This document shows, one piece after another, positions 2,806 through 63,555 of a stretch of DNA of 64,000 nucleotides; position 1 is the first letter of the stretch; every line of letters starts with the position of its first letter. The notes under the pieces were generated by a model. The model was not told the DNA's origin. It made no database searches and worked only from the letters and a program-made list of their open reading frames with translations. Source of the DNA: a phage. The position numbers were made by a program, and so were the translations under genes. The stretch lies in sequence record OZ346164.1. One strand, written 5' to 3'.

Positions 2806-2806
2806 A

Positions 2807-3352
2807 TTAAAAGTGCCCTTTTACTTGTGGAACATAAATTTCAAAGGTTGCTTTACCATCCTCTGATGGTTTTGACTGTACCTTTGTAAATACACGGTTA
2901 TCATACAGCTTCTCAAAGAAGTTTTCAAAAGGTAAATGCACAGTGGCCTCTTCAGTAACTTTATGGAAAACAGTATGGAACACCACACTAGCATATGGTA
3001 AAGCGTTGACAAGGATACCTGCACCACCAATTACAAAGATATCTTCATCAATAGAGCTATCAAGATACTTCAAAAATGCTCCAAATGACTCTTTACTGGC
3101 TTTAGCATACATTACATCATCTTTGCCAAAGTCTATGCCTAAGTATGGTACAGAATTTGTTAAGATGAGGTTTGCACGTTCTGGTAAAGGTTTACTACCC
3201 AGAGTCTTAAAAGTCTCATTACCCATGACTACTAAGTTATTTTTAGTGAGTCTCTTAAACTCTTGCATGTCCTGTTTATGTCGAGGCCACGGCATACCAG
3301 TCGGTGTACCAAATTCACCGTTTTCACCACTTGCAAATATTAGTTTAATCAT
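2807..3352 (-). CDS. folA: dihydrofolate reductase
   Basis: N-terminal MIKLIFA...GMPWP and VVMGNETFKTL motifs typical of DHFR; adjacent to thyA. Confidence 0.8.
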   Translation of the reverse strand: MIKLIFASGENGEFGTPTGMPWPRHKQDMQEFKRLTKNNLVVMGNETFKTLGSKPLPERANLILTNSVPYLGIDFGKDDVMYAKASKESFGAFLKYLDSSIDEDIFVIGGAGILVNALPYASVVFHTVFHKVTEEATVHLPFENFFEKLYDNRVFTKVQSKPSEDGKATFEIYVPQVKGHF

Positions 3353-3609
3353 TTTGTAAACCCTTTCTTAATGAACCAGTTGATGACACTCTTCACAAAT
3401 TTACTACGATGGTAGATAAAATGTGGAGAGGGTTGGTATGAACCATAAGCCCAGAAAGCGATAATTTCATTACACCCTGTGCATCGGGTACTTTCTTCAG
3501 CAATATGACCGTTGACTATTTCATTTACCTCACCTTGTAAGTCTGTACACCCACAATGTGGACAACGGATAGGTGTTCCATCAGACTCATAGCAGTGTTC
3601 AATTTTCAT
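3349..3609 (-). CDS. zinc-ribbon protein
   Basis: CPHCGC ... CTGCNE paired Cys motifs. Confidence 0.4.
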   Translation of the reverse strand: MKIEHCYESDGTPIRCPHCGCTDLQGEVNEIVNGHIAEESTRCTGCNEIIAFWAYGSYQPSPHFIYHRSKFVKSVINWFIKKGFTK

Positions 3610-4125
3610 CTATTTAACCTCAAAAACTGGCTCAAGAACCAATATAAAGTCTACACAGTCATCTTCTTCATCCAGAACACCATCAAAGTTCTTAGGAACG
3701 AAGTCGAAGAGGCTCATAACAAAACAGTCAGAAGTGACCCTGATAGTTCCTCCCATGTTCTCTACAGTTAACACTGTACGACTTTCTTTTACCTCCCTCA
3801 GAAGATTACCCACAAAGTCATCCAAGAAGTGCTTCATCAGTGACTTAAAACCTTTAGGGTAATCTGTACCAGAGTATGTTTCAATCTGGGGAACAAGCTT
3901 AACATTTATACTAGTCTTTGTTAAGAATGTATTAGAGAACATACTATCAGGTAACTTACAAACAGTCTTTCCAGTACCTTCATGTTCAATCTCAACAAAA
4001 CCAGCTTCATCGCCACATGTAACTATTTTAAAAGATGCTTCATTCTCATACTGTGAAGCCATAAACTTTTTAAGCATCACTTTAAGGAAGTCTGCATGAG
4101 CATCTTGTAAGAAGATATCAATCAT
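3610..4125 (-). CDS. hypothetical protein
   Basis: 171 aa ORF in minus-strand operon, no recognised motif. Confidence 0.4.
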   Translation of the reverse strand: MIDIFLQDAHADFLKVMLKKFMASQYENEASFKIVTCGDEAGFVEIEHEGTGKTVCKLPDSMFSNTFLTKTSINVKLVPQIETYSGTDYPKGFKSLMKHFLDDFVGNLLREVKESRTVLTVENMGGTIRVTSDCFVMSLFDFVPKNFDGVLDEEDDCVDFILVLEPVFEVK

Positions 4126-7954: not shown

Positions 7955-8005
7955 AAGCCCTCCTATATAAGATATAGTATAAGGTACTCTTCCATGAGCA
8001 CCTTG

Positions 8006-8539
8006 TCAACTTAGTTTTGCAAACTCTCCGTGGAGTTTAATAGCAGCTTCACAGTAAGCTTTATGGGCTTCTTCAGGTGTGTCATGGTGACCTAAAAACA
8101 TCTTCTTACCTTTATAACTTATCTGTGCGACCCACTTACCAGACTTCTTCTTAAGACTTACACCCTTGTACCCAGATTTATTGGTGACCGGTTTACCTTT
8201 ATTCCAAGCACTTTGAAAATCATCTGCTTCCCTTAAGTTTACAATCCTGTTGTCAAGTGAGTCTCCGTTGATATGGTCAATGATACCTTTTGGCATCTTG
8301 CCATACACGTAAAGCCATGCGAGTCTGTGTGCTTTATGTGCTTTCTTGTCAAAATAGATACTAACCTGTTTATGACCACTTGAATCAGTCTGGATATTAC
8401 CTGCCACCTTTCCTGCATAATTACTGTTAAAAACACTAACAGCTCTTGATTTACCTTCTCTACGAAGCCAAGTAAAGACCCCTGTTTCGGGGTCATAGTG
8501 CAGCAGCTCCTTTAAACGTTTTTGTAAAATTAAATCCAT
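8006..8539 (-). CDS. HNH homing endonuclease with AP2 DNA-binding domain
   Basis: IDHINGDSLDNRIVNLR HNH_3-like motif and SGYKGVS...WVAQI AP2-like motif; paralog of 18378..18893 (shared YDPETGVFTW). Confidence 0.75.
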   Translation of the reverse strand: MDLILQKRLKELLHYDPETGVFTWLRREGKSRAVSVFNSNYAGKVAGNIQTDSSGHKQVSIYFDKKAHKAHRLAWLYVYGKMPKGIIDHINGDSLDNRIVNLREADDFQSAWNKGKPVTNKSGYKGVSLKKKSGKWVAQISYKGKKMFLGHHDTPEEAHKAYCEAAIKLHGEFAKLS

Positions 8540-8542
8540 TAA

Positions 8543-9097
8543 TCAATGTACCTCATACCAGCTCTTACCAACCTTTGCTGTACCAGTTACAAGTGTTTCT
8601 TTCCTCAAACCTAAGTTTTTTGAAGCTTGTCCATACATCCAGTCAGCAATTGCTTTCATATCATGTGTCATACCCTCTGGACATTCCCAACTATTTTCAT
8701 CGTGATATGCCAGAAGTAACCTTGCTCCGATAGCTGGTTTTCGAGCATTCAGTTTTGTCAGGCCATCTTCACAGGCTTTTCTTGCTGCTAGGTTGATGGC
8801 CTCATTCTGAATCTGTGCTTCCGAACTCATCAGGAGGTAGTTCAGTAGTTTATGTGGAGATTTGCACCATATCCATGCTCCAGCGACCCTGATATAACCA
8901 CCTTTAGCAATTGAAGAATTCTTCCCAAAAACCTCTTCCAGAGCCTTTTTAGACGCCTTAAAATCGGCTTCTAAGCTATCAAGTAACTTCTTAATCTTTG
9001 GCAGACGCATATAGTAAGTTTGTTTAGTCAATGCACCTTCTTCCGTAGATGATGCCTTGATAGTTTTTGCAAACTTCTCGTCTCCAGCCCCGAACAA
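8543..9097 (-). CDS. DNA polymerase (family A), exon 2
   Basis: Begins LFGAGDEKF (second half of motif B) and contains LLAYHDENSWE (motif C HDE). Confidence 0.7.
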   Translation of the reverse strand: MFGAGDEKFAKTIKASSTEEGALTKQTYYMRLPKIKKLLDSLEADFKASKKALEEVFGKNSSIAKGGYIRVAGAWIWCKSPHKLLNYLLMSSEAQIQNEAINLAARKACEDGLTKLNARKPAIGARLLLAYHDENSWECPEGMTHDMKAIADWMYGQASKNLGLRKETLVTGTAKVGKSWYEVH

Positions 9098-9326
9098 TAC
9101 ATCTGGTCAATACACTCGCAAGGTGTACCAGTTCTCTTATGAACTTCTCCGCATTTCTACGGAGTGTCGGACTATATCACGTAGCAGTGGTGCTACCGTT
9201 GCACTTGGGATGGTCATTAGCTTACCACCCTACTCTACTCAGTTCATACGTTAAGTATGCTTTTCGATAGTCTCTGAACGTTCCTCTTAAGAGGCTTCGC
9301 TGCTGATTACCATATCTTTACAGACT
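9098..9326 (-). other. group I-like intron in DNA polymerase gene
   Basis: Minus strand carries GTTCAGAGACTA (R-like) and GATATAGTCCG (S-like) core elements; splits motif B; no ORF. Confidence 0.6.
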
Positions 9327-11539
9327 TAGGCTTCCAGCAATTCACAACGTTTTACATGCGCCACTGACGCATAAATGCCATTTTTGGCTTTCTTACGACC
9401 TTTTGTAATCTCGTGGAGAAGTTCCTCATCCTGTGTCTCCCTACAACGAACAATGTCTTCTTCCTTGTTCAGACCAAAGTAAATACTATTCAGTGTATGT
9501 GCATCAGTACCTGTGTAGACTTCATAGAGGTCATTCTCAGCATCATAACGCAGATACTTGTCAGTTTCTGGGTTAAGATACTTGTCAAGATGCTTGCAGT
9601 AGTATCTACCATCATCTTGCTTAGTGAACTCAACTGACTCTTTACCCTCAGTTACCGCTTTAGTGAAGTCTTCATCACCCATAAAGTTACAAAGAAGAAC
9701 TAGCTGGGCTGAGTTTTGGTCTACAGAGACAACGTTAGTACCTTCTTCACAAATCCACACCTCCCTCATAGGTGCTCCATAGACAGCAGCACCAGACGGT
9801 ACGTTTACAATACCATATTGTGTCATACGTCCAGTTGAAGTACCAAACACCATTGCACCAGCACTAAGGCGACCATCAGGACGAATCTGGTTCAACCAAC
9901 CTTTTTCATCATCTTTTGAGTTCTCAATAGTTCTACGTCGGTGCATCAAAGTATAGTACTTAGCAATCTTCTGTCCAAGCTCACCTTCAATCGTATCATA
10001 AGATGATTCAGTAAGTTTTGGTGAAGTACGGATTAAGCAAGGCTCAAGCAAATCTGTGTATTTCTTCACAGACCAGTTATGCTCAATGTACTGGACACCT
10101 TCATGCTCAACATAGCTCAAACCACACCGCTCAACCATTTCCTGCCACTTAGGATGCTTTGTAATCATCTTTTTATTGTCTTTGAAACGACAAACTTTGA
10201 TAGGGCGACCATCTGAGTCTTTCTTGTAATTCCAGTCATCTGGAATCCAACCAACTGATTTCAAGTAGTCTTTAACAACTGCTACCTGAGTCATACGAGA
10301 AACTTCAAACTCAATTGGTGTATATGGTGCATCAATCAAACCTGTGTAGCGACTTGACTCAAGTTCAAAGTGGTTAACAACGTGGCTGTTATAGTACTTC
10401 ACAGTTTTGACTGTTTTTACTGGCTTCCAGTCTTTGCATTTCTTACCAATCTTTGCGTTCAACTCATTGCAAATTGCACGAGCATCCTTCATTGCTACAA
10501 AACCTTCCTTGTACTCTTCACCAGTTACAGAGTTGGTTGGTGTATAGCAATTCCTTTTTTCAATGTTAAAAATCTTTGTAGTTGGCTTACCAAATGGTTT
10601 GATTTCGTATGTCTGCATCTCACCATTACGTACCTGCTGACGATACTTTGTCTTAGGGTACTTGGTAATTCTTTTCAGTCCATCTGCATGACCAAATGTT
10701 TCAACATACTCATTCCAAGCTTTTGCAAACTCTTCTCCAGTGACTTTACCTTTGGTCTTAATAGTTGGAGGAAGATGTGGTTCAACCTCTGAAGCAAGCT
10801 CATTAGTCAACTTGTCAAGTTCCTTTACATGGAACTCCATAAGCTCTTTATCAGCTTTCCAACCATTAATAGCTTGTTGACTCATCCAGAAAGATGTTTC
10901 TTTAGCTCGCATGTAGGTTTCATAAGTGTCTATGCCACACTTCTTAAGCTTGAGATACTCATTATCAAGTGCCCGTTTAGTTTTGGCGTTAATACGGATA
11001 TCTTCTACAACACGAGTGAAGATTTCTGCATTCCACACACCCCAATGTTCAATCTCTGGTTTACGAACACCAACACGAGCACCCCATGCAGCCAAGCCAT
11101 GAGCACCTTTATAACCCTTTGGAGTTGGTCTATCCATCCACTGAACACGAGACTGGATAAGAGAATCCTGAAAGAAATTACTCCACGGCTTACACTTTGG
11201 ATTATCAAAGTTCCATAAATCCGGTGCAATGTGATTGAAAACCCACCAGTCATAACCTAGACCATTATGAATGCAAAGACGTTTTGCCTTTAACGCAAAC
11301 TCAACACCTTCACGTAAGCCACCCTTAATGTACTTGGTATACTTGTGACCGAGGATAGGCTCATCTGTAAAGACCCATACAGGCGGCTCTTTATCGTCAG
11401 ATTTATAGTCTGCGAAAGCCATTACGTGCACTTTAGTGAACTCAAGGAGTAAACCATCAGTTTCTGTATCACCAACTAAATGTAAGTTTTTAAAATCTAC
11501 GTTTTCCATTTTTACTCCCTCTAAAATCATTAACCTCAT
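9326..11539 (-). CDS. DNA polymerase (family A), exon 1 incl. 3'-5' exonuclease
   Basis: Exo I motif DTETDGL, motif A-like VSVDQNSAQLVLL, ends RKKAKNGIYA (first half of motif B); annotated stop probably lies in intron. Confidence 0.8.
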   Translation of the reverse strand: MRLMILEGVKMENVDFKNLHLVGDTETDGLLLEFTKVHVMAFADYKSDDKEPPVWVFTDEPILGHKYTKYIKGGLREGVEFALKAKRLCIHNGLGYDWWVFNHIAPDLWNFDNPKCKPWSNFFQDSLIQSRVQWMDRPTPKGYKGAHGLAAWGARVGVRKPEIEHWGVWNAEIFTRVVEDIRINAKTKRALDNEYLKLKKCGIDTYETYMRAKETSFWMSQQAINGWKADKELMEFHVKELDKLTNELASEVEPHLPPTIKTKGKVTGEEFAKAWNEYVETFGHADGLKRITKYPKTKYRQQVRNGEMQTYEIKPFGKPTTKIFNIEKRNCYTPTNSVTGEEYKEGFVAMKDARAICNELNAKIGKKCKDWKPVKTVKTVKYYNSHVVNHFELESSRYTGLIDAPYTPIEFEVSRMTQVAVVKDYLKSVGWIPDDWNYKKDSDGRPIKVCRFKDNKKMITKHPKWQEMVERCGLSYVEHEGVQYIEHNWSVKKYTDLLEPCLIRTSPKLTESSYDTIEGELGQKIAKYYTLMHRRRTIENSKDDEKGWLNQIRPDGRLSAGAMVFGTSTGRMTQYGIVNVPSGAAVYGAPMREVWICEEGTNVVSVDQNSAQLVLLCNFMGDEDFTKAVTEGKESVEFTKQDDGRYYCKHLDKYLNPETDKYLRYDAENDLYEVYTGTDAHTLNSIYFGLNKEEDIVRCRETQDEELLHEITKGRKKAKNGIYASVAHVKRCELLEA

Positions 11540-11569
11540 ACATTACTGCAAAAAATTATAAAAAGCAAG

Positions 11570-11598
11570 TTGACAATGCACTTGACAAGGTGTTAATC
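11570..11598 (+). promoter_or_regulatory. tandem TTGACA element (TTGACAATGCACTTGACAAGGTG)
   Basis: Two -35-like hexamers 6 bp apart; near-identical element at 56449. Confidence 0.4.
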
Positions 11599-11706
11599 TT
11601 TGCGAAGTGGGTTTTTACTTAAAAGGTTACTTAACAGTTTAACTATACAGATACTTTAAAACTCTTAAAAGATTATTTAATAGCTTTTAAAAAGCTTTAA
11701 AATATA

Positions 11707-17377: not shown

Positions 17378-18424
17378 ATGGAGAAGTACACATTAACAAA
17401 ACTTCCCGATTCAGTTACACATGTTTTTATTGACTCTGACAGTATTGCCTATAAAGGTGCTTGTGTAGTTGAGAAAGCAAAGTATAAATATGTCAATAAA
17501 CTCACAGCAGAAGAATCTGAACCATTTGATAATGCGAAAGATGCTGCAAGATGGTTAGCAGACCAGAGAATCCTTGTGGAAGAACTTGGCCTGACATTTG
17601 ATGAAGATGAATGGGAAAGACAGACTTGGAAAGAAGCTAAGAGTGAAAAAGAAGCTATCATGGCTACTCAACAGGTTCTTCAGGAATGGCTTAAGGTTGT
17701 TGGTAAAGAGAGAATTTGGGTAGGTTATCTAACAGAGAAAGGTGTGCATAAGCATAAAGACATTAAAGGTCTTGAGCACCAATATCAAGGTAACCGTAAA
17801 GATGCTGTCACACCAACACACTTAGTTGCTTGTCGTGAGTATCTTCTGTCAAGACCAGAGTTCAAACTAATTCTTGATGGATTTGAAGCCGATTCTATCG
17901 TTATTGCTAAAGCTGAAAAGATGGGTAAAAAGGCTGCCTTGATGAGTATTGATAAAGACCTTCGTCAAGCTGAAGGGACTTACTGCATTGATATGACCTA
18001 TGAAAAGTCACCTTTGATTTTCATTGCTGACAACAACGTAGGTGAAATTTGGGATTGCCCAATAAAATCGACACCAAAAGCTAAGAAGACAGTTGGGGTA
18101 GGTTTTAAATTTCTTTGTTACCAAGCTGTGGCTGGTGATAATGCTGATAATTATTTTGGTTTAAAGGGCGTTGGTAAGGCTACTGTAATGAAAGCACTTG
18201 AAGGTAAAACCACCTACAAAGAGTGTCTTGATGCAATTTATGAGCTTTATGCTAAGAAAGAGTCATACACTTATGTCTCGTGGGATGGTCAAACAATTAC
18301 CAGAACACCTTTAGAGTTAATGCAGCAACACTTTTTCTTAGCTTATCAGGAAAGAAACAAGAAAGACGATTTTACTTTTGATAAGTATGGGTGGACACCA
18401 AATGTTAACTCAACAAACTCTTAA
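17378..18424 (+). CDS. 5'-3' exonuclease / flap endonuclease
   Basis: N-terminal HVFIDSDSIAYKGA resembles FEN/T5 D15 nuclease catalytic region. Confidence 0.55.
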   Translation: MEKYTLTKLPDSVTHVFIDSDSIAYKGACVVEKAKYKYVNKLTAEESEPFDNAKDAARWLADQRILVEELGLTFDEDEWERQTWKEAKSEKEAIMATQQVLQEWLKVVGKERIWVGYLTEKGVHKHKDIKGLEHQYQGNRKDAVTPTHLVACREYLLSRPEFKLILDGFEADSIVIAKAEKMGKKAALMSIDKDLRQAEGTYCIDMTYEKSPLIFIADNNVGEIWDCPIKSTPKAKKTVGVGFKFLCYQAVAGDNADNYFGLKGVGKATVMKALEGKTTYKECLDAIYELYAKKESYTYVSWDGQTITRTPLELMQQHFFLAYQERNKKDDFTFDKYGWTPNVNSTNS

Positions 18425-18893
18425 AGAGTACCTACATTATGACCCCGAAACAGGGGTCTTTACTTGGATTAAGAAATCTGCTAGACACACAAAAATTGGC
18501 TCTGTTGCAGGTACAAACTTAAGAGGGTATACCAGAATTTATTTGTTTGGTAAGGGCTATTATGCACATACCCTAGCCGTTCTGTATATGGATGGATACC
18601 TACCTGAGTGTGTTGACCATAAAAATCATGTAACACTAGACAATCGCTGGGTAAATCTTAGGGCATGTACGTTATCAGAGAACCAATGTAATAGGTTGCT
18701 CAATAAGAACAATAAATCAGGTGTTAAAGGTGTGTACTACAAAAAACAGTATGGTAAGTGGTCTACACAGATAACTTTTAAGAAGAGGGTTTACTTCTTC
18801 GGCAACTATGACACTATTGATGAAGCAGCAGAGGTTGTAAATAGGGAACGTCAACGTTTACACAAAGAGTTTGCTAATAAAGGTGATGAATGA
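18378..18893 (+). CDS. HNH homing endonuclease with AP2 domain
   Basis: VDHKNHVTLDNRWVNLR and SGVKGVYY...KWSTQI motifs; overlaps 3' end of exonuclease gene. Confidence 0.75.
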   Translation: MISMGGHQMLTQQTLKEYLHYDPETGVFTWIKKSARHTKIGSVAGTNLRGYTRIYLFGKGYYAHTLAVLYMDGYLPECVDHKNHVTLDNRWVNLRACTLSENQCNRLLNKNNKSGVKGVYYKKQYGKWSTQITFKKRVYFFGNYDTIDEAAEVVNRERQRLHKEFANKGDE

Positions 18894-25175: not shown

Positions 25176-26375
25176 ATGAACAAAGTACAGATTATTAAAA
25201 AGAATGGCTCACTTGAAGAACCTGATATCAAAAAAGTTTTAGCAGCAGTCACAAAGTCAGCTAACAGAGTTGGTTATAAAGAGCTTCCACCAGATGTTAC
25301 TCAAGCTCTTGAGTCAGCATTTATGAGGATTCTGGTAAAGTCCACTAAGCAGAATAATTTGCTAATTTCGGTAAATGATATTCACAGTATTGTTGAGGGT
25401 GCTTTGGCAGAAGTCAATCACGAGATTTATGAGTCTTACTCAACATATAGAAATTACCGTAAAGAGGTTGCTCAAAATTGGGATGAACTCTACCAGAAGA
25501 CCAAAGATACACTCTTCTTAGGCGACCGAGAAAACGCTAATTTTGACAGCAGTTTAATTTCTACAAAAGGCTCAATTATTCGTGGTTACCTGACTAAAGA
25601 AATCTTTAAACAGTACCATTTAACACCAGAGGAACTTGAAGCCATTGAAAAAGGATTTATCTATATCCATGATTTAAGAGACCTAATTTTTGGTGGTATC
25701 AACTGTTGCCTGTTTGACATTGGTAAAGTCCTGAAAGGTGGCTTTGAAATGTCTGGCATTGAATATTGTGAACCGAAGTCTGTGCTGTCAGCCTTACAGG
25801 TTATTGGTGATGTAGTTCTTTCAGCAACTGCACAGCAATTTGGTGGCTTTACTTTAGCAGAGATTGATAAGGTACTTGTACCGTATGCTAAGAAGTCTCT
25901 ACGTTACCATGCTGAAAAAGCAACAGCTTATGGTATTCCTAAAGAACATTACCACAACTATGTCATGGAGCAGCTACAGATTGAATTAACTCAAGGTTTT
26001 CAGTCTCTTGAAATGAAGCTCAATACTGTGCCTTGTAGCCGTGGTGATTTTGCATTCACAACTTTGACATTCGGGTTACTTGACTCAGATATGTCTAATG
26101 AAGATAACCGACTGCAATACATGATTGCGAGCACTCTCCTAGATGTTCGTATGAATGGACAAGGTAAGAGCAAGAAACCTGTTGTATTCCCTAAACTGGT
26201 TTATATTTATGACCAGAAGAGACACAATGAGAATATCTGTCAAGGCCACCTGTACAGTAAAGCTATTGAGTGTTGCTCTAAAGCTATGTATCCAGATTTC
26301 TTAAGTGTATCTGGACATGGTGCTGTAGCAGAGGCTTTTGAGCGTTCTGGCAAGGTAATTTCCCCGATGGGTTAA
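25176..26375 (+). CDS. nrdD: anaerobic ribonucleotide reductase, exon 1
   Basis: ATP-cone N-terminus; reading frame interrupted, resumes at 26678. Confidence 0.75.
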   Translation: MNKVQIIKKNGSLEEPDIKKVLAAVTKSANRVGYKELPPDVTQALESAFMRILVKSTKQNNLLISVNDIHSIVEGALAEVNHEIYESYSTYRNYRKEVAQNWDELYQKTKDTLFLGDRENANFDSSLISTKGSIIRGYLTKEIFKQYHLTPEELEAIEKGFIYIHDLRDLIFGGINCCLFDIGKVLKGGFEMSGIEYCEPKSVLSALQVIGDVVLSATAQQFGGFTLAEIDKVLVPYAKKSLRYHAEKATAYGIPKEHYHNYVMEQLQIELTQGFQSLEMKLNTVPCSRGDFAFTTLTFGLLDSDMSNEDNRLQYMIASTLLDVRMNGQGKSKKPVVFPKLVYIYDQKRHNENICQGHLYSKAIECCSKAMYPDFLSVSGHGAVAEAFERSGKVISPMG

Positions 26376-26677
26376 CAAGCTCTATAGCTCATCTAAAACG
26401 TGCCTAAACAGGGAAACTCTACAGATGTAGACAATCCTGTGCTAAATGATGTACGATGTAAGAAACTATACAACATAGGAGTCTTACATGCCAAATAACT
26501 TCGAATATGAGTTTGAATACATCTAAATGCCGAACGACTAACCGTGATGAATGTAGCGGTGTAGGGTCAAGCGACTCGAAATGGTACGCTACTTAGAAAT
26601 AAGTAGAAGATATAGTCTGGACTTACTGGCGACAGTAAGCAGCTTGAATAAAGCGGGGTAAGCTTAGCGAACTTACT
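26376..26677 (+). other. group I-like intron in nrdD
   Basis: About 300 nt without ORF, contains CAGGGAA/ATCCTGT (P4-like) and GACTAACC/AGATATAGTCT (P7 R/S-like) elements. Confidence 0.6.
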
Positions 26678-27636
26678 TGAACAACAAGTGTAGAGCATTT
26701 TTATCACCATACCATAACGAACATGGTGAAGAGTTTTATGTAGGTCGTGCTAACATTGGTGCTGTATCTTTGAACTTACCAATGATTTATCAGTACACCA
26801 AAGAGAATGGCTTAGATTTCTGGAAAGAGCTTGATAAGTACCTAGAAATGATTCGCAGCTTCCACAAGAAACGTTACGAAATGATTGCTAATATGCCAGC
26901 AAGTTCTAACCCTCTTGCATTCACACAGGGTGGTCTGTACAAAGGGAATAAGAAACCTACTGACAAGGTTGGCTGGGATATCGTGAAGTCCTTCACAGCT
27001 TCTTTTGGGGTTACTGCGCTTGATGAGCTATCTGTTCTTGCTGAAGGTAAACGACTCCATGAAGTTGGAAGCTGTAGTTTTGCATATGATGTTCTGGCAT
27101 ACATTAACATGAAAACTGAAGAGTTTAAGAACGAAGATGGCTTCTTGTATGCGGTATATGGCACTCCAGCAGAATCACTTTGTGGAACTCAGTTAAAACA
27201 GTTCAGAGATATGTTTGGCGTTATTAAAGGTGTCTCTGACAAGGAATACTTTACAAACAGTTTCCATATGAATGTTGCAGCAGACATCTCACCATTTGAG
27301 AAGCAGGACTTAGAAGAGCCATTCTTCCATATCTGTAGAGGTGGTAGAATCCAGTATGTAAGGGTAGCTAACCCAGAAAACTTAACAGCACTTAAAAGTT
27401 GTATTACAAGAGGGATGTTGAAAGGTTTCTATCAGGGGCTTAACTTTGACTTAGCAATCTGTGAACATTGTGGTAACAGACCAAAGGCTGATGTTGAAGA
27501 ATGTGAGGTTTGCCATTCACATGATATCTCTGTGATTAACAGGGTGTGCGGGTACTTGTCATTCACAAAAATTAAAGGTCAGTCTCGAATGAATGACGCT
27601 AAGATGGCAGAAATTAAGGATAGGGTTTCTATGTAA
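26678..27636 (+). CDS. nrdD: anaerobic ribonucleotide reductase, exon 2
   Basis: C-terminal glycyl-radical motif RVCGYLSF and Cys4 zinc site CEHCG...CEVCH. Confidence 0.8.
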
Positions 27637-58630: not shown

Positions 58631-58708
58631 TCTCTGTTTAGCTCAGCTTGGTAGAGCGTTCCGTTTGGGGCGGTAAGGCCGGAGGTTCAAGTCCTCCAAC
58701 AGAGACCA
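58631..58708 (+). tRNA. tRNA-Pro (anticodon UGG)
   Basis: 7 bp acceptor, D stem GCTC/GAGC, loop TTTGGGG, T arm GGAGG-TTCAAGT-CCTCC. Confidence 0.75.
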
Positions 58709-58715
58709 AATTAAT

Positions 58716-58793
58716 GTTCCAGTAGACAAAATGGTATAGTCACCACTCTTTCAAAGTGGATATCTGAGGGTTCAAATCCCTTCTGGAACGCCA
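58716..58793 (+). tRNA. tRNA-Glu (anticodon UUC)
   Basis: Acceptor GTTCCAG/CTGGAAC, anticodon stem CCACT/AGTGG, loop CTTTCAA, encoded CCA. Confidence 0.75.
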
Positions 58794-58883
58794 GTTTTGA
58801 CAGAAGACCAATTACAGCAAACTTAATCTACTCATCTGAAAGTTAATCGGACAAAGAAGATATTTGGTCTGGTCATTAAGAAT

Positions 58884-58960
58884 TGCGGGTATAGAGAAAG
58901 GGCGTCTCACATGTCTCATTAGCATGGTATCGGCAGGTTCGACTCCTGCACCCGCCTCCA
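58884..58960 (+). tRNA. tRNA with anticodon CAU (Met or Ile2), 1-72 mismatch
   Basis: Loop CTCATTA, T arm GCAGG-TTCGACT-CCTGC, acceptor pairs 2-7 only. Confidence 0.6.
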
Positions 58961-59042
58961 AATTTACAGAAGACCGTTTACAGCAATATTTATTAAATTT
59001 TTAGCGGAAAAATTGAAAGATACGGTCTGGTAATACTAAATA

Positions 59043-59120
59043 TGGTTAGGAAGCACATAAGGTATGTGCGGTCGCCTGTTAAGCGAATGGCACAGGGTTC
59101 GAATCCCTGACTAACCGCAA
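59043..59120 (+). tRNA. tRNA-Asn (anticodon GUU)
   Basis: D stem GCAC/GTGC, loop CTGTTAA, T arm CAGGG-TTCGAAT-CCCTG. Confidence 0.7.
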
Positions 59121-59128
59121 AATTAAAT

Positions 59129-59216
59129 GTGTCGTTATCCCGTAGATGGTAGCGGTGGGGACTGTAAATCCCTTGTCATTGAGACTCGGTAGGTTCGACT
59201 CCTACACGGCACACCA
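59129..59216 (+). tRNA. tRNA-Tyr (anticodon GUA), long variable arm
   Basis: Acceptor GTGTCGT/ACGGCAC, loop CTGTAAA, about 15 nt variable arm, encoded CCA. Confidence 0.75.
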
Positions 59217-59221
59217 ATAAA

Positions 59222-59298
59222 GGCTATGTAGTTTAACTGGAGAAAATACTCCCCTGTCACGGGAGATGATGTGAGTTCAAGTCTCATCGTAGCCGCCA
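59222..59298 (+). tRNA. tRNA-Asp (anticodon GUC)
   Basis: Acceptor GGCTATG/CGTAGCC, stem CTCCC/GGGAG, loop CTGTCAC, encoded CCA. Confidence 0.75.
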
Positions 59299-59499
59299 AT
59301 TTTGAGAGGGCTATTTAGCCCCTCCCTTAAAGAGTTCTTACGAGTATTCTTTAAAGGAGCAGAAGACCAAATACAGCAAGAATGTATGATATTTTCAAGC
59401 CAATTCAATTTTGAAAAATTTAAAACTTGGTCTGGCTCAACAAATTTACAGAAGACCGTTTACAGCAAAACTTAAACAATCTATTTCTCGGTAAAGAAA

Positions 59500-59540
59500 A
59501 GGCGAAGGTTCGATTCCTTCACTCGGCAGAGGTCGAGTTG
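59500..59540 (+). ncRNA. tRNA-like T-arm plus acceptor minihelix (not a full tRNA)
   Basis: GAAGG-TTCGATT-CCTTC T-arm-like hairpin directly followed by ACTCGGC-AGAG-GTCGAGT hairpin and D-loop-like GTTGGTGTAATGGTAG. Confidence 0.4.
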
Positions 59541-59730
59541 GTGTAATGGTAGCACTTAAGATGATAAACAACGGTCTGGTAATTATCTTTGCAGTAGCTT
59601 ATGTGGCTAATTATGTCGTCCCATGAGTGCCGATGAATTTCCTTAGCATGATTCTAGATTAGCTTAATAGGAAATGACTCTACAGACCCTTTAGCAAGGT
59701 CTGCGTAGGTTACTGCAAAGATGATTTAAT

Positions 59731-59806
59731 GGAAGTGTAGCAGAATGGTGATGCGGCAGACTTTTAATCTGACAGGCGATGGGTTCGAATCCCTCCACTT
59801 CTACCA
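59731..59806 (+). tRNA. tRNA-Lys (anticodon UUU)
   Basis: Acceptor GGAAGTG/CACTTCT, loop CTTTTAA, TTCGAAT T-loop, encoded CCA. Confidence 0.65.
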
Positions 59807-59811
59807 AAAAT

Positions 59812-59888
59812 GGTTCAGTCGCAGATAAGGTAATGCAAGGGTTTCATAAGCCCTATGAATGTGGGTTCGATTCCCATCTGAACCTCCA
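59812..59888 (+). tRNA. tRNA-Met (anticodon CAU)
   Basis: Acceptor GGTTCAG/CTGAACC, stem AGGGT/GCCCT, loop TTCATAA, encoded CCA. Confidence 0.7.
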
Positions 59889-59890
59889 AT

Positions 59891-59966
59891 GCTGTGAAAG
59901 CACATATGGATGTGCATTCGGCTGATAACCGAAAGGCAGAAGGTTCGAATCCTTCTCACAGTACCA
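59891..59966 (+). tRNA. tRNA-Ile (anticodon GAU)
   Basis: Stem TTCGG/CCGAA, loop CTGATAA, T arm GAAGG-TTCGAAT-CCTTC, encoded CCA. Confidence 0.75.
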
Positions 59967-59982
59967 ATTTCAATAAAGTTGT

Positions 59983-60010
59983 TGACATTAAGATGTGACT
60001 ACTTTATAGT
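59983..60010 (+). promoter_or_regulatory. sigma70-like internal promoter in tRNA cluster
   Basis: TTGACA, 16-17 bp spacer, TATAGT. Confidence 0.5.
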
Positions 60011-60214
60011 AACCTTAGTTTTCGTTGCGTAGCGTCTATTTTGCAAATTTAAAATAAATGCAAACGACAATGTTTTTCTGGCAGTAGCTTGATAGGCTAA
60101 ACACCAGTGAGGTCTTCCAATCCCTCATCAAAGAATTTGGCGTACTCGCCCACGGTATGATTAATAAGGTGGGCATCTTTAAGGGCTTTCTAATAGAGTC
60201 TTTAAAGATAATTA

Positions 60215-60296
60215 CGGGGCGTATCTCAGCGGTCTTCTAAACCGCCGTTAACCGAGTAAGTGGAGTATGCGGGTTCGAGTCCTGCCGCCTCGACCA
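60215..60296 (+). tRNA. atypical tRNA-like gene, possible anticodon UCU (Arg)
   Basis: Good T arm and acceptor (CGGGGCG/CGCCTCG, CCA encoded) and GCGGT-CTTCTAA-ACCGC anticodon-like hairpin, but D-arm spacing non-canonical. Confidence 0.35.
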
Positions 60297-60439
60297 ATTT
60301 AGTTAGCAGATTACTTAGACGACCTAAGCGGGTCTTCCTGTAGGGAGGTGGTCTGTATCTCATGTTTTCCAGAACATGTAAATAATCTGAGAAGGGGCTT
60401 TACAGTGTTGAGATAATACGGTAAGCTTCGAATTATAGT

Positions 60440-60522
60440 ATGGGACGATGTTAAGACTCTAAGGCATGAGCAACGGCCTCCAAAACCGTTTCAAAGGGGT
60501 TCAACTCCTCCGTCCCATGCCA
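60440..60522 (+). tRNA. tRNA-Trp (anticodon CCA), enlarged D region
   Basis: Acceptor ATGGGAC/GTCCCAT, loop CTCCAAA, TTCAACT T-loop, CCA encoded; about 7 extra nt in D region. Confidence 0.5.
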
Positions 60523-60535
60523 AAGTCTTATTAGG

Positions 60536-60623
60536 GGTAGGTAGCGGCTAATGGCAGCCAAACAGTCTTGAAAACTGTTGCCACTGTAGAGATACGGTGA
60601 GGGTTCGACTCCTTTACTTACCG
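60536..60623 (+). tRNA. tRNA-Ser (anticodon UGA), long variable arm
   Basis: Acceptor GGTAGGT/ACTTACC, stem ACAGT/ACTGT, loop CTTGAAA, about 20 nt variable arm. Confidence 0.7.
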
Positions 60624-60881
60624 CCTAATAAGATTTTAAAGCCAAGCTTCATTCGGATGTCGCTTTGGTATCCCTCGTGTATTGTCGTACACACTGATAA
60701 AACACCTAGTAGGTGTCACGGAGAAGAGATAATATCAAGCTCTCCAAAGGTTCTAGTCACCGGATTAAACAAGACTATGCAAAGACCTTTTTAGGTCTTT
60801 TTAGAGGGCTTCTAAGGTTATTACAGCTTGTTGTGGAACCTTGTTGCTTAGGTTCTTAGAAGTTCTCTAAAAAGATTTAAT

Positions 60882-60958
60882 GCACCTATAGCCCAACTGG
60901 TAGAGGCAGCAGACTTAGAATCTGCTCAGTGTGAGTTCGAATCTCTCTAGGTGTACCA
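60882..60958 (+). tRNA. tRNA with Leu anticodon UAG but short variable arm
   Basis: Stem GCAGA/TCTGC, loop CTTAGAA, discriminator A, CCA encoded; only 5 nt variable loop. Confidence 0.55.
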
Positions 60959-60965
60959 AATTAAT

Positions 60966-61041
60966 GCAGGTGTAGCAAAATGGTTATGCGGCTGACCCTT
61001 AATCAGTAAGACGATGGGTTCAATTCCCTCCACCTGTACCA
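60966..61041 (+). tRNA. tRNA-Lys (anticodon CUU), tentative
   Basis: Acceptor GCAGGTG/CACCTGT, loop CCCTTAA (C at position 33), CCA encoded. Confidence 0.5.
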
Positions 61042-61047
61042 AACAAT

Positions 61048-61123
61048 GGGGTCATAGTTTATATGGTTAAAATTCGAGTTTTGCAAACTTGGGAACTGAG
61101 TTCAATTCTCAGTGACTCCACCA
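61048..61123 (+). tRNA. tRNA-Ala (anticodon UGC)
   Basis: Acceptor GGGGTCA/TGACTCC, loop TTTGCAA, T arm CTGAG-TTCAATT-CTCAG, CCA encoded. Confidence 0.7.
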
Positions 61124-61129
61124 ATTAGT

Positions 61130-61204
61130 GCATCCATAGTTTAAACGGGAAAATTACAGTCTTCCAAACTGAGGTTGAGGGTTCGATTCCCTCTGGATGC
61201 TCCA
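61130..61204 (+). tRNA. tRNA-Gly (anticodon UCC)
   Basis: Perfect acceptor GCATCCA/TGGATGC, loop CTTCCAA, T arm GAGGG-TTCGATT-CCCTC. Confidence 0.8.
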
Positions 61205-61211
61205 AATTAAT

Positions 61212-61287
61212 GCTCCTATCGTATAATTGGTTATTACGGTTGCCTTGTAAGCAACTTATCAGGGTTCGAGTCCTTGTGGGAGCACCA
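61212..61287 (+). tRNA. tRNA-Thr (anticodon UGU)
   Basis: Stem GTTGC/GCAAC, loop CTTGTAA, TTCGAGT T-loop, CCA encoded. Confidence 0.8.
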
Positions 61288-61290
61288 ATT

Positions 61291-61380
61291 CAGAGGTCAA
61301 GTGAAAGACCGCTTTGAGTCAACTGAAGACCGTAACAAATTCCACGAAGTTGAGTTAGCGGCACAACTTCAGACCTCTTT
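61291..61380 (+). ncRNA. long structured hairpin element between tRNAs
   Basis: CAGAGGTC ... GACCTCTT closing stem around about 75 nt containing GAAGACCG motifs; no T-loop. Confidence 0.35.
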
Positions 61381-61383
61381 CAT

Positions 61384-61458
61384 ACTCGCTTAGTTTATAT
61401 GGTAAAACATCACCCTTACAAGATGAAGAAAAAGGTTCAAGTCCTTTAGTGAGTACCA
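61384..61458 (+). tRNA. tRNA-Val (anticodon UAC)
   Basis: D stem GTTT/AAAC, loop CTTACAA, T arm AAAGG-TTCAAGT-CCTTT, CCA encoded. Confidence 0.7.
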
Positions 61459-61459
61459 T

Positions 61460-61537
61460 GTTCCAGTATCCCAATTGGCAGAGGATGCAAGCTCAAACCT
61501 TGTATTAGTGACGGTTCGAATCCGTCTTGGAACACCA
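61460..61537 (+). tRNA. tRNA with Leu anticodon CAA but short variable arm
   Basis: Stem GCAAG/CTTGT, loop CTCAAAC, T arm GACGG-TTCGAAT-CCGTC, discriminator A, CCA encoded. Confidence 0.55.
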
Positions 61538-61542
61538 ATTTT

Positions 61543-61618
61543 GCAGGATTAGTTCAAATGGATAGAGCAACAGTCTACGAAGCTGCTAATAGGGGTTCGA
61601 ATCCCTTATCCTGCGCCA
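61543..61618 (+). tRNA. tRNA-Arg (anticodon ACG)
   Basis: Perfect acceptor GCAGGAT/ATCCTGC, D stem GTTC/GAGC, loop CTACGAA, CCA encoded. Confidence 0.8.
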
Positions 61619-61637
61619 ATTTAAAGAGGCTATTTAG

Positions 61638-62195
61638 ATGAGATATTTGAAGTATGCTTCATGGATTTTCTTAGCTTTGTTAGAGCCATTTGCAGCAATC
61701 TTAGCAGTTATCTTAGCACCTTTTGTAGTTCCATTCTACAGTGAGAAGAAAGGGCACTTACCTTTCGGGTTCAGATGGATGGAGACATATGACAACCCAA
61801 TTGATGGTGATGAAGGTCACGTTAAAAGATGGGCTAATATTAGATGGATTGGTAAACTAGGTGTCTACATGCAAAGAGTCGGATGGCTCTGGAGAAACAA
61901 AGCTTATAACTTCTCTTACCATGTATTAGGAAGAGATGTAAGAGATGTTACTAAGTGGAAAGGTAATATCAACGTAAGTTCTGACCCCGAAGATAATCAG
62001 ACAGGTTATCTCCTAATGTGGAACAGTAATGCTTGGGGATTATTCGCTTTTATCCCATCAATTAAAATCTTTGGTAAACAATTTTACTGGAGAATTTATA
62101 TTGGATGGAAACTAAAAAGTGTTGTCCCAGAAGAAAGAGCATTCTCAAGGGAAAGAGTTATGTTGGCATTCTTTATTCATCCACTGAGAAAGTAA
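61638..62195 (+). CDS. membrane protein encoded inside tRNA cluster
   Basis: 185 aa, hydrophobic N-terminus, Trp-rich. Confidence 0.45.
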   Translation: MRYLKYASWIFLALLEPFAAILAVILAPFVVPFYSEKKGHLPFGFRWMETYDNPIDGDEGHVKRWANIRWIGKLGVYMQRVGWLWRNKAYNFSYHVLGRDVRDVTKWKGNINVSSDPEDNQTGYLLMWNSNAWGLFAFIPSIKIFGKQFYWRIYIGWKLKSVVPEERAFSRERVMLAFFIHPLRK

Positions 62196-62203
62196 AGATT
62201 TAA

Positions 62204-62279
62204 AGGGGATTAGTTTACAAGGTTAAAACCTCGGTCTTTGAAATCGAAGAAGTTGGTTCAATTCCAACATCCCCCGCCA
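62204..62279 (+). tRNA. tRNA-Gln (anticodon UUG)
   Basis: D stem GTTT/AAAC, stem TCGGT/ATCGA, loop CTTTGAA, T arm GTTGG-TTCAATT-CCAAC. Confidence 0.7.
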
Positions 62280-62281
62280 AT

Positions 62282-62360
62282 GCTCCATTACTCCAATTGG
62301 CAGAGAGGCCAGACTTAAAATCTGTGTTATGTATCGGTTCGAATCCGATATGGAGTACCA
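62282..62360 (+). tRNA. tRNA with Leu anticodon UAA but short variable arm
   Basis: Loop CTTAAAA, T arm ATCGG-TTCGAAT-CCGAT, discriminator A, CCA encoded. Confidence 0.5.
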
Positions 62361-62365
62361 AATTT

Positions 62366-62441
62366 AGCGGTATAGCATAACTGGCAATGCAGCAGCCTCT
62401 GAAGCTGTCCTATTAAGGTTCAAATCCTTATGCCGCTGCCA
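62366..62441 (+). tRNA. tRNA-Gln (anticodon CUG)
   Basis: D stem GCAT/ATGC, stem GCAGC/GCTGT, loop CTCTGAA, T arm TAAGG-TTCAAAT-CCTTA. Confidence 0.65.
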
Positions 62442-62472
62442 CTTCTAAGGATTCTTGCGAGAGTCCTTAAAT

Positions 62473-62548
62473 GTGGCCTTATCATAAACGGTAATGACCC
62501 ATGCTGTGAACATGGTCTATACGGGTTCAAATCCCGTAGGTCACCCCA
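62473..62548 (+). tRNA. tRNA-His (anticodon GUG)
   Basis: D stem TCAT/ATGA, stem CCATG/CATGG, loop CTGTGAA, T arm ACGGG-TTCAAAT-CCCGT. Confidence 0.8.
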
Positions 62549-62553
62549 ATTTA

Positions 62554-62630
62554 TAGTCCAAGTAGCTTATATGGTTAAAGCGCGTGTCTGAAAAACATGA
62601 GAAGAGAGTTCAAATCCCACTGGACTACCA
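62554..62630 (+). tRNA. tRNA-Phe (anticodon GAA)
   Basis: Acceptor TAGTCCA/TGGACTA, stem CGTGT/ACATG, loop CTGAAAA; T stem weak. Confidence 0.6.
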
Positions 62631-62646
62631 ATTTCAAAGGTGCTTA

Positions 62647-63381
62647 ATGAAAGAGATGACAGAACAAGGTAAGGAGATTTTTAATCTCTTAAAAACTGGT
62701 AAAGGGTTCTCTAACCCGCTTATTACTGGTGCAGCAGTTCTCGGTGGAACCGTAGCTGCCTCTACATCACTTGTAAGCTCTATTAGTTCTGTAACAGACC
62801 CTACAATGAAGGAGAAGCTTGTTGCTGCTGGACTTACAACAGTCCTTCTAAACAGCTTTACAACAAGCCTGACAAGCACTACAGCAACCACTAAGACCCT
62901 AACAGACTATGGTCAAAAGTCTATTGATGAGTTTTCATCACGTATGCAGGTAGCAAAGGGATACTCCAATGTTATGGGTGCAGCAGGAGAACAAGTTGGT
63001 TGTACACCATTCAGTGGTATTATGGGTGTTGCTACAGAATATGGTCAAAAAGCTATTGATACGATTAACAGTACACTAGAGAGTGTTAATGGTGTGTTAA
63101 GTGACTTACAAGATGCTATTGATAAGGGTCTTGATACTGTTTCTGATTTAGCTAATCAGGCTGTTAGTAAGATTAATGAAGGTATTTCAAAGATTACAGC
63201 TTATGCAGATGAAGTTGTGCAGATGATTGAAGAAGAAGCTGCCCTTATTGCAGAGTACCTTAAAACGAATATCAATGGGTTCTTAGCAGGTATCTTACCA
63301 GACTGGTTTGATGATGCTTGTAAAACTGGTGTAATCGACACTATTGCAACACCAGAAATGAAGAACGCATTGCAGAAATAA
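62647..63381 (+). CDS. hypothetical protein encoded inside tRNA cluster
   Basis: Start moved to Met after tRNA-Phe (track start 62584 overlaps the tRNA); Ser/Thr/Ala-rich helical protein. Confidence 0.45.
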   Translation: MKEMTEQGKEIFNLLKTGKGFSNPLITGAAVLGGTVAASTSLVSSISSVTDPTMKEKLVAAGLTTVLLNSFTTSLTSTTATTKTLTDYGQKSIDEFSSRMQVAKGYSNVMGAAGEQVGCTPFSGIMGVATEYGQKAIDTINSTLESVNGVLSDLQDAIDKGLDTVSDLANQAVSKINEGISKITAYADEVVQMIEEEAALIAEYLKTNINGFLAGILPDWFDDACKTGVIDTIATPEMKNALQK

Positions 63382-63382
63382 T

Positions 63383-63475
63383 GGAAGATTAACCCTAAAA
63401 GGTAAGGGAGCAGTTTGCTAAACTGCCAGTAGCTGAGAAATCGGTGTACCAGTTCAAGTCTGGTATCTTCCTCCA
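63383..63475 (+). tRNA. tRNA-Ser (anticodon GCU), long variable arm
   Basis: Perfect acceptor GGAAGAT/ATCTTCC, stem GCAGT/ACTGC, loop TTGCTAA, long extra arm. Confidence 0.75.
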
Positions 63476-63480
63476 ATTTT

Positions 63481-63555
63481 GAATCCGTGACAGAAATGGA
63501 TATGTGCCTGTCTGCAAAACAGGTTTATAAGGGTTCAAGTCCCTTCGGATTCTCC
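63481..63555 (+). tRNA. tRNA-Cys (anticodon GCA)
   Basis: Perfect acceptor GAATCCG/CGGATTC, stem CCTGT/ACAGG, loop CTGCAAA, CCA encoded. Confidence 0.8.

Follow-up and report, generated by a model that had tools for sequence, protein, structure and literature searches.

A group I intron without an endonuclease gene in motif B of a predicted Felixounavirus DNA polymerase gene, beside a most likely independent HNH-AP2 gene

The phage sequence analyzed here, record OZ346164.1, is a stretch of 64,000 nucleotides (nt), referred to below as the window. Between positions 8543 and 11539, on the minus strand, it contains a predicted DNA polymerase gene (pol) that is interrupted by a group I intron and followed by a gene for an HNH-AP2 endonuclease. 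The intron is real and well formed and, judging from its sequence, it is almost certainly spliced. We regard it as very probable that the intron splitting pol belongs to a mobile intron family and lacks an endonuclease gene, and that the HNH-AP2 gene is a separate element. The window can be assigned by similarity to Felixounavirus, i.e., to a Felix O1-like myophage: region 8000..11600 is 96-97% identical to many genomes of this genus (BLAST; 263 matching records), among which phages L27, pSJ21, and REP5 are examples annotated locally as 'DNA polymerase (x2)' and 'HNH endonuclease.' Felixounavirus comprises the Felix O1-like myophages of Escherichia and Salmonella. Alleles were compared across the window and 25 fetched loci, which gives 26 alleles, 8 with the intron and 18 without it.

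The Rfam model for group I introns (RF00028, Intron_gpI) matches 9147..9429 on the minus strand over its full length (model positions 1-253), with a score of 61.7 bits (gathering score, 50) and, over the 64-kb window, an E of 3.1e-13, far beyond what chance would give. The insertion point lies after the first base of a leucine codon (U/UA; here and below, the slash marks this point), so that the 5' splice site falls directly after U9367. In the P1 hairpin, the splice site is marked by the wobble pair U9367·G9361, and the P1 loop CAGUG (9366..9362) can pair over 5 bp with UAUUG in exon 2 (9099..9095) to form P10. P1 and its U·G pair are kept in 8/8 intron-bearing alleles, all of which carry the flank ATGCGT/TATTG; the intronless alleles read TACGCCC/TGTTA or TATGCAC/TGCTG. 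The comparison with intronless relatives gives the same boundaries. A 400-nt junction spliced in silico is found as one unbroken 400-nt match in Felix O1, ULIM9, SP116, bumzen, HY02, and others, and as two pieces 267-268 nt apart in intron-bearing phages (BLAST). In all 18 intronless alleles, exactly one codon separates ...IYA and LFGAG.

The first-pass annotation of this DNA had already suggested a group I-like intron in pol and had proposed an Rfam covariance-model search and an alignment with intronless homologs as checks; both bear it out, the latter by fixing the insertion site. The two core strings that it had picked out on the minus strand, GTTCAGAGACTA (9268..9279) and GATATAGTCCG (9168..9178), do belong to the group I core, and the intron is ORF-less as it had stated, with no minus-strand open reading frame (ORF) of at least 40 amino acids (aa) inside it in the ORF list. 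Its equation of the intron with the gap between the two ORFs has to be replaced by the boundaries in Table 1.

Exon 1 starts at ATG 11539 (alternative starts at 11530 and 11509) and ends with U9367, the first base of the split leucine codon. Its product consists of an N-terminal exonuclease region and of the polymerase region as far as ...RKKAKNGIYA. Exon 2 opens with the UA of the same codon, continues with LFGAGDEKF...AYHDE..., and stops at TGA 8543..8545. When the exons are ligated in silico as ...AUUUAUGCGU/UAUUGUUCGGG..., the result is a 909-aa protein with the junction ...RKKAKNGIYA-L-LFGAGDEKF.... In PDB sequence matches, this protein aligns to residues 517-621 of T7 DNA polymerase without a gap over the junction (E = 1.7e-9, TRDNAKTFIYGFLYGAGDEKIG), where GRKKAKNGIYALLFGAGDEKFAKTI stands opposite TRDNAKTFIYGFLYGAGDEKIGQIV of the T7 enzyme, and it also matches the Taq polymerase structure (E ~ 3e-6). 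It contains motif B (RKKAKNGIYALLFG) and motif C (AYHDE) of family A DNA polymerases. By these sequence features, pol is a family A DNA polymerase gene that is split within motif B, the O-helix. The O-helix residues are numbered R518, K522, Y526, and Y530 in T7, and R754, K758, F762, and Y766 in Escherichia coli; from this numbering and the T7 alignment, we take the split leucine to correspond to T7 Phe528 (F528) and to position 764 of E. coli Pol I.

The reconstruction of motif B across two ORFs, and the location of motif C in the second of these, had likewise been noticed in the first-pass annotation and are confirmed by the gapless T7 alignment and by the AYHDE sequence. Some of its details need correction. 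The 737-aa ORF exists (9326..11539, minus strand), but it does not end at ...RKKAKNGIYA, which is where homology ends: 13 more codons, the intron-derived SVAHVKRCELLEA, lead to the TAA at 9326..9328, so that the C-terminus reads ...RKKAKNGIYASVAHVKRCELLEA. The second ORF (8543..9097, minus strand; 184 aa, with AYHDE inside) lies 228 nt past the first, close to the 230 bp given, and starts as (TTG)FGAGDEKF.

Most GenBank records list two separate 'DNA polymerase' coding sequences (CDSs), and the announcement of phage Mushroom describes two genes whose products align to a single Felix O1 protein (PMC4392139). Both would fit a gene in pieces, in which the RNA stays unspliced and the 737-aa and 184-aa products form a two-subunit polymerase, as in the split NrdA of phage Aeh1. 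We consider this extremely improbable, given that the break is located in mid-codon inside the O-helix and that the RNA in between has all the parts of a group I ribozyme, including a correct P1, P10, and terminal G. P1/P10-compatible exon flanks, moreover, are present in every intron-bearing allele. Exon 2 offers only a TTG as start, with no in-frame ATG and no clear Shine-Dalgarno sequence upstream, and its frame is open for just 3 codons further upstream, as far as TGA 9107..9109. Initiation of exon 2 at the AUG formed by the last three bases of the intron (9102..9100) was also considered and was rejected, this AUG being out of frame.

In the splicing mechanism that we favor, pol would be transcribed as a single RNA, in which the intron would fold with P1 and its U·G pair at the 5' splice site, a core of P3-P9 with P7.1/P7.2 and P9.1/P9.2, and P10 aligning exon 2. 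The intron would then excise itself by guanosine-initiated two-step transesterification, and the spliced mRNA would encode a polymerase of 906-909 aa with the junction given above. Unspliced RNA would yield only a truncated exon-1 product, ending at the TAA 13 codons into the intron.

As the first-pass annotation supposed, the sequence folds into a group I core. Without constraints, minimum free energy and centroid folds both recover P3, P4, P5, P6, P7.1, P7.2, P8, P9, P9.1, and P9.2 (z = -2.3), and the P7 pseudoknot is the only helix of the model that is missing from them. With P7.1/P7.2 present and P2 absent from the structure model, the intron would be classified as IA type; its P7.1-P7.2 linker is 14 nt long, the hallmark of IA2 being just GUA. 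Support for the helices also comes from covariation. Within the genus, compensatory changes affect the closing pair of P6 (C-G to U-A) and a pair of P8 (C-G to U-A), and the tetraloop of P5a (P5) varies from GUAA to GGAA, by which the GNRA class is kept. A homolog in an RNA polymerase gene of phage ZQ2, which is 73% identical, folds independently into the same helices; relative to it, both sides of the pair have changed in P3 (3 pairs), P5a (1), P8 (5), and P9 (2). For this comparison, helices were matched explicitly and by independent folding. A sequence-only MAFFT alignment of the intron core with ZQ2 was tried for counting pairs and was rejected, as it misplaced P7.2-P8.

Table 1. Features of the pol region in the window (window coordinate = 9367 minus intron position).
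Feature	Position	Strand	Basis or remark
DNA polymerase exon 1	9367..11539	-	ORF list; T7/Taq structure matches; intronless alleles continuous there
P1 hairpin	9356..9372	-	Sequence reading; exon AUGCGU (9372..9367) paired with internal guide GCGCAU (9361..9356)
Group I intron, 267 nt, ORF-less	9100..9366	-	Rfam RF00028; folds; compensatory changes; intronless relatives lack exactly 9100..9366
P3	intron positions 18-22 / 166-170	-	Structure model
P4	intron positions 28-33 / 61-66	-	Structure model
P5	intron positions 37-38 / 56-57	-	Structure model
In-frame TAA within intron	9326..9328 (intron positions 39-41)	-	ORF list; sequence reading
P5a	intron positions 42-45 / 50-53	-	GUAA loop
P6, CCUC-UUAA-GAGG	9283..9294 (intron positions 73-84; 73-76 / 81-84)	-	Intron alignment
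J6/7 and P7 5' strand (guanosine-binding helix), GUUCAGAGACUA	9268..9279	-	Rfam alignment; pairs with 9169..9173
P7	intron positions 95-99 / 193-197	-	GACUA/UAGUC pairing; invariant sequences
P7.1	9245..9259 (intron positions 108-112 / 118-122)	-	Fold
P7.2	9207..9230 (intron positions 137-143 / 153-160)	-	Fold
P8	intron positions 171-176 / 181-186	-	Structure model
J8/7 and P7 3' strand, GAUAUAGUCCG	9168..9178	-	Rfam alignment; GACUA/UAGUC pairing
P9	intron positions 203-209 / 214-220	-	GAAA loop
P9.1	intron positions 222-226 / 233-237	-	Structure model
P9.2	intron positions 238-244 / 252-262	-	Structure model
Terminal guanosine (omega G), 3' splice site	9100..9100	-	Sequence reading; all intron copies end ...CCAGATG
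DNA polymerase exon 2	8543..9099	-	ORF list; sequence reading; in-silico splicing; Pfam DNA_pol_A profile positions 217-381
Free-standing HNH-AP2 endonuclease gene, 177 aa	8006..8539	-	Pfam HNH_3 and AP2; variable slot in relatives

With the intron alone as query, BLAST retrieves ~97 phage records that contain it at full length. It is 97-100% identical among relatives and occurs in four forms: (i) an ORF-less form of 267/268 nt, with no endonuclease gene, in this window, Meda, BPS17W1, tootiki, and phiWec172; (ii) an ORF-deleted form of 311 nt in garuso, Mushroom, and NJ12, with a deletion between short GACTCCTAAA-like repeats; (iii) a frameshifted form of 780 nt in VpaE1, whose ORF is split by a 22-nt deletion; and (iv) an intact form of 802-805 nt in JH2 (802 nt), Si3, FSL SP-012, and others, in which P6 is extended to 11 bp and its loop encloses a 160-aa ORF. 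This P6-loop ORF (positions 3609-4091 of locus L017) matches Pfam Endonuclease_7 (E = 1.1e-19) and carries N-terminal zinc-ribbon motifs. The JH2-type gene is thus a putative Endonuclease VII-type homing endonuclease gene, with an activity predicted from these similarities. Taken together, the four forms show a mobile intron family in which a homing endonuclease gene is seen at different points of its life cycle.

The direction of this series is less clear. A single deletion leading from the long form to the short-P6, ORF-less form was considered and was rejected, since the P6 sequences do not fit. It is quite conceivable, if somewhat short of probable, that the ORF-less short-P6 form is ancestral and that the Endonuclease VII-type gene entered the P6 loop later, an alternative that concerns the history of the intron and not its mechanism. 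A simple deletion in the long P6 (GUCUCUGUUAGG...CCUAACAGAGA) would not yield the short one (GCCUCUUAAGAGGA), whereas the 311-nt form, which is clearly derived by deletion, retains the long P6 stem; in addition, the cores outside P6 are 99-100% identical, so that one recent insertion would suffice. However, the endonuclease gene is decaying in VpaE1 (frameshift) and in garuso (deletion), which indicates that loss is under way in the family, and the divergence is too small to polarize gain against loss.

Evidence of mobility comes from the flanking exons. The intron is polymorphic for presence at a single site (8/26 alleles), and its core is 97-100% identical even where identity is only 67-78% in the exons 30-100 nt away, as it is between the window and JH2. 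Over ±90 nt, the window is the same as intronless ULIM9 save for 12 substitutions, which are clustered from -23 to +14; inside this patch, the window is the same as JH2, which has the intron with its endonuclease gene, and many differences from JH2 are found outside -31..+16. The exon patch that travels with the intron reaches ~31 nt from the insertion site on the upstream side and 16 nt on the downstream side. Similarly, garuso differs from its intronless twin by only four bases, GCAC/TGCTG to GCGT/TATTG, and these are the bases that P1 and P10 require. Short patches of this kind, centered on the insertion site, are co-conversion tracts such as gene conversion begun at that site would give, and they also show that the exon flanks are under selection for splice competence. 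Because such short co-converted patches flank the intron in diverged or intronless backgrounds, the comparison indicates that the intron has probably moved within the genus by homing-type gene conversion, carrying 5-30 nt of flanking exon with it.

The HNH-AP2 gene begins 3 nt past the pol stop codon, directly after exon 2 as the first-pass annotation had it, and lies 557 nt from the intron insertion site. Its product scores 54.5 bits with Pfam HNH_3 (cut-off 24.8; residues 69-104) and 48.4 bits with Pfam AP2 (cut-off 33.3; residues 122-171). The slot that it occupies is empty in JH2, VpaE1, and six IMG/VR phages (in a scan of 16 IMG/VR loci, too few for statistics), and elsewhere it holds at least four HNH-AP2 variants. 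Variant A, with 83-100% aa identity to the gene of the window, is present in the window, BPS17W1, bumzen, ULIM9, HY02, phiSUSP1, and dune; variant B (~52%) in garuso; variant C (~49%) in Meda, phiWec172, and SP116; and variant D (~47%) in Felix O1 and tootiki. The HNH gene of the window recurs (97-99% aa identity) in bumzen, ULIM9, and HY02, where pol is intronless. The intron occurs with no HNH gene downstream in JH2 and VpaE1, and the same intron is accompanied by other HNH variants in tootiki, phiWec172, and Meda. Since different variants, or none, occur in the slot both with and without the intron, a functional partnership between intron and HNH gene is unsupported. The most likely reading is that the HNH-AP2 gene encodes a free-standing homing endonuclease, independent of the intron, and occupies a hot spot behind pol.

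Toward its 3' end, exon 2 is a mosaic whose sequence tends to go with the HNH variant. Its first 100-300 nt are 95-100% identical to those of Felix O1, tootiki, and Meda (loci L019, L020, and L022), and identity falls to 58-69% in its last ~250 nt (8543..8800), beside different HNH-AP2 variants. This drop marks a recombination boundary beside the nuclease gene. Such a mosaic would be expected if exchange around the insertion point of each free-standing endonuclease were promoted by that endonuclease itself. A second gene of the HNH-AP2 type, a paralog 41% identical at the aa level to the 8006..8539 product (tblastn), is located at 18378..18893 on the plus strand, where it overlaps the end of a 348-aa ORF (17378..18424).

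The first-pass annotation had read the arrangement of intron and HNH gene as the one expected when an intron homes with the help of a neighboring endonuclease. Under such collaborative, or trans, homing, the HNH-AP2 enzyme would cut intronless pol either at the insertion site, in the manner of I-TslI and F-CphI, or near it, in the manner of T4 MobE, and repair would copy both the intron and the HNH gene. The distance between the two is within the range reported for mobilization of the T4 nrdB intron by MobE (PMC2790892; reviewed in PMC3984707), and the intron copy in the window does not itself encode an endonuclease. A composite BLAST query (intron plus HNH variant A), sampled evenly down the ranking and hence approximate in its co-occurrence numbers, returned 179 records, of which 33 contain both elements, ~24 just variant A, and ~63 just the intron (sampled estimate). 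The 33 phages with both hold the ORF-less form of the intron, and the intron is somewhat commoner in the company of variant A.

Nevertheless, we judge collaborative homing unlikely, and the annotation's proposal is not supported by the comparison. All four combinations of intron and HNH gene occur, so that joint inheritance is not seen: the slot varies independently of the intron. A cognate endonuclease gene exists within the intron family itself, in the P6 loop of the JH2-type form. The co-converted patch, ~31 + 16 nt, is centered on the insertion site, which suggests an event at that site rather than one begun by a nuclease near the HNH gene, 557 nt away. Over ±90 nt, the window differs from intronless phages with variant A only between -23 and +14, with no long tract toward the HNH gene. 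Finally, the insertion-site sequence of these intronless variant-A phages is that of Felix O1 and SP116, which carry other variants. A narrower version, in which the HNH-AP2 enzyme recognizes or nicks near the motif-B insertion site in some intronless alleles and so mobilizes the ORF-less intron in trans, seems to us quite unlikely. If it were true, one essential gene would harbor a three-way system of ORF-less intron, intron-borne Endonuclease VII-type endonuclease, and competing HNH-AP2 variants, and dozens of isolates would hold a record of the transition that links collaborative homing with a composite mobile intron.

Several observations weigh against our interpretation of an intron from a mobile family with a separate HNH-AP2 gene beside it. 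As a rough estimate, the intron is present in ~33/~57 genomes with variant A vs. ~64/~206 others, an association that could reflect linkage or some functional tie; this modest enrichment is expected from linkage over 557 nt alone and is no evidence of function. No homolog of the JH2 intron endonuclease was found anywhere in the 64-kb window; the window has no intron-type endonuclease gene, and its copy of the intron therefore cannot home on its own. We infer splicing from the structure, the restored reading frame, and the viability of the phages, the ~97 intron-bearing isolates being viable. Compared with most relatives, the intron in the window has a 1-nt deletion at the base of P7.2 (C4 to C3, 9207..9210), which makes it 267 instead of 268 nt long; SUT_S720-type phages, 99.3% identical, also have 267 nt, and the deletion at the foot of P7.2 is probably neutral. 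Lastly, taken alone, the polymerase halves reach only 16.4 and 26.5 bits against the Pfam DNA_pol_A gathering threshold of 34.3, so that the family assignment is based on the motifs and on the matches to PDB sequences.

Pol A genes of phages are a classic location of group I introns, with examples in SPO1, SP82, Bastille, ΦI, W31, phiL7, and Pf-WMP3. Group IA2 introns have been described in the family A polymerase genes of SPO1, SP82, and Bastille (with I-HmuI, I-HmuII, and I-BasI), of the T7-like phages ΦI and W31 (I-TslI), and of the cyanophage Pf-WMP3 (I-PfoP3I; PMC3428280). The introns of ΦI, W31, and Pf-WMP3 lack P2, possess P7.1/P7.2, and have an endonuclease ORF in P6a (PMC3428280), an architecture shared by the Felixounavirus intron family, in which P2 is likewise absent, P7.1/P7.2 are present, and the ORF of the relatives is in P6. 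Two differences are found. The characterized polymerase introns are inserted at E. coli Pol I positions 674, 676, and 881 (PMC3428280), whereas the site here, at position 764 in motif B, lies inside the O-helix and is distinct from the experimentally studied ones. In addition, the endonuclease of the JH2-type relatives is of the Endonuclease_7 type with zinc ribbons and not of the I-HmuI type, and the window copy is ORF-less.

Motif B is also interrupted in the Pol I gene of KarlSchell_Bas89 (PQ850613), where a related core matches intron positions 22-74 at 85% (BLAST). The intron breaks the sequence RDNAKTFIYAF/N..YGAGDAKLG, and the GenBank CDS is joined across it. Bas89 belongs to another phage family, and its intron differs by a P2 hairpin and an internal endonuclease ORF. 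Judging from P1 and the reading frame, its splice site would be ~6 nt further downstream, at T/AT of the codon equivalent to Tyr766. The intron of Bas89 is in the same motif, and motif B is therefore used by the intron lineage in unrelated phages. Homologous group I cores were seen in three phages: in ZQ2 (locus L027, ~470-760), in an N4-like virion/early RNA polymerase gene, right after a ...VHD motif; in Bas89 (locus L028, ~2470-3240), at the motif B site already described, where the intron holds an endonuclease ORF and the Pol I CDS is joined; and in the crAss-like cr3_1 (locus L029, ~2480-3560), in a DNA polymerase gene with an internal ORF.

Trans homing is known for the T4 nrdB intron with MobE (PMC2790892), and collaborative homing for the S-PM2 psbA intron with F-CphI and for T3/ΦI with I-TslI (PMC3984707). 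The locus studied here is laid out like these systems: a group I intron without an endonuclease gene interrupts an essential gene, and a free-standing gene of the HNH family adjoins it. Unlike in these systems, intron and endonuclease assort independently, and the conversion tract is short and centered on the site. HNH-AP2 homing endonucleases have long been known from Felix O1, and for those of Felix O1 and RB49 PMC4237383 cites Magnani et al. (2004); ORF95 of Felix O1 occupies the same slot after pol and has the same HNH_3 and AP2 architecture, but represents a different variant, with 47% aa identity.

At the level of annotation, this intron is already known, and it is an ordinary case of a group I intron in a phage replication gene. 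The Meda announcement of 2019 mentions an intron without an HNH endonuclease in the DNA polymerase gene (PMC6486253), and in record MH586731 the Meda polymerase CDS is joined across it. The introns of Meda and of other Felixounavirus phages are the same element at the same site, 99.6-100% identical to that of the window; the Meda intron agrees with it at all 267 aligned positions, the window copy being 1 nt shorter (267 vs. 268). Meda differs in the HNH-AP2 variant downstream, which has 49% aa identity to that of the window. For Felix O1, the genome paper describes one polymerase of 906 aa and no introns (PMC3185647), in agreement with the sequence of that phage, in which pol is intronless. 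The Mushroom announcement of 2015 notes two polymerase genes separated by 383 bp that contain no endonuclease ORF (PMC4392139), and the SPJ41 paper reports 'two introns' from a non-coding RNA scan (PMC9951933). In the literature searched, we found no splicing experiment for Felixounavirus pol introns and no comparative treatment of the forms with and without the endonuclease gene; a search on VpaE1, polymerase, and endonuclease returned nothing, and comparative genomics papers on Felixounavirus discuss endonucleases but not the polymerase intron. The present analysis contributes the splice sites at base resolution, a model of the structure, the series of endonuclease-gene states, and the co-conversion tracts.

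For annotation, this means that the two 'DNA polymerase' CDSs in many Felixounavirus records are almost certainly one spliced gene, to be joined at ...GCGT/TATTG..., which is relevant because phages of this genus are used for the biocontrol of Salmonella and E. coli. In addition, the series found within the genus (intronless, ORF-less, ORF-deleted, frameshifted, and with an intact endonuclease gene), together with its very short tracts, could serve studies of the homing endonuclease gene life cycle.

Elsewhere in the window, a second group I intron is found at 26258..26639 on the plus strand (RF00028, 54.6 bits against the gathering score of 50), where it splits nrdD, the gene for the anaerobic ribonucleotide reductase. 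It is located between the ORFs 25176..26375 and 26677..27636, and the gap contains no ORF of at least 70 aa. According to the literature, UAB_Phi87, Mushroom, and Meda carry a homing endonuclease gene at the nrdD split; the intron in the window looks like an endonuclease-less copy. Finally, Rfam gives 24 tRNA matches clustered at 58632..63553 on the plus strand, two of which (60215..60293 and 60536..60623) are barely above threshold. A tRNA cluster is typical of Felixounavirus genomes.

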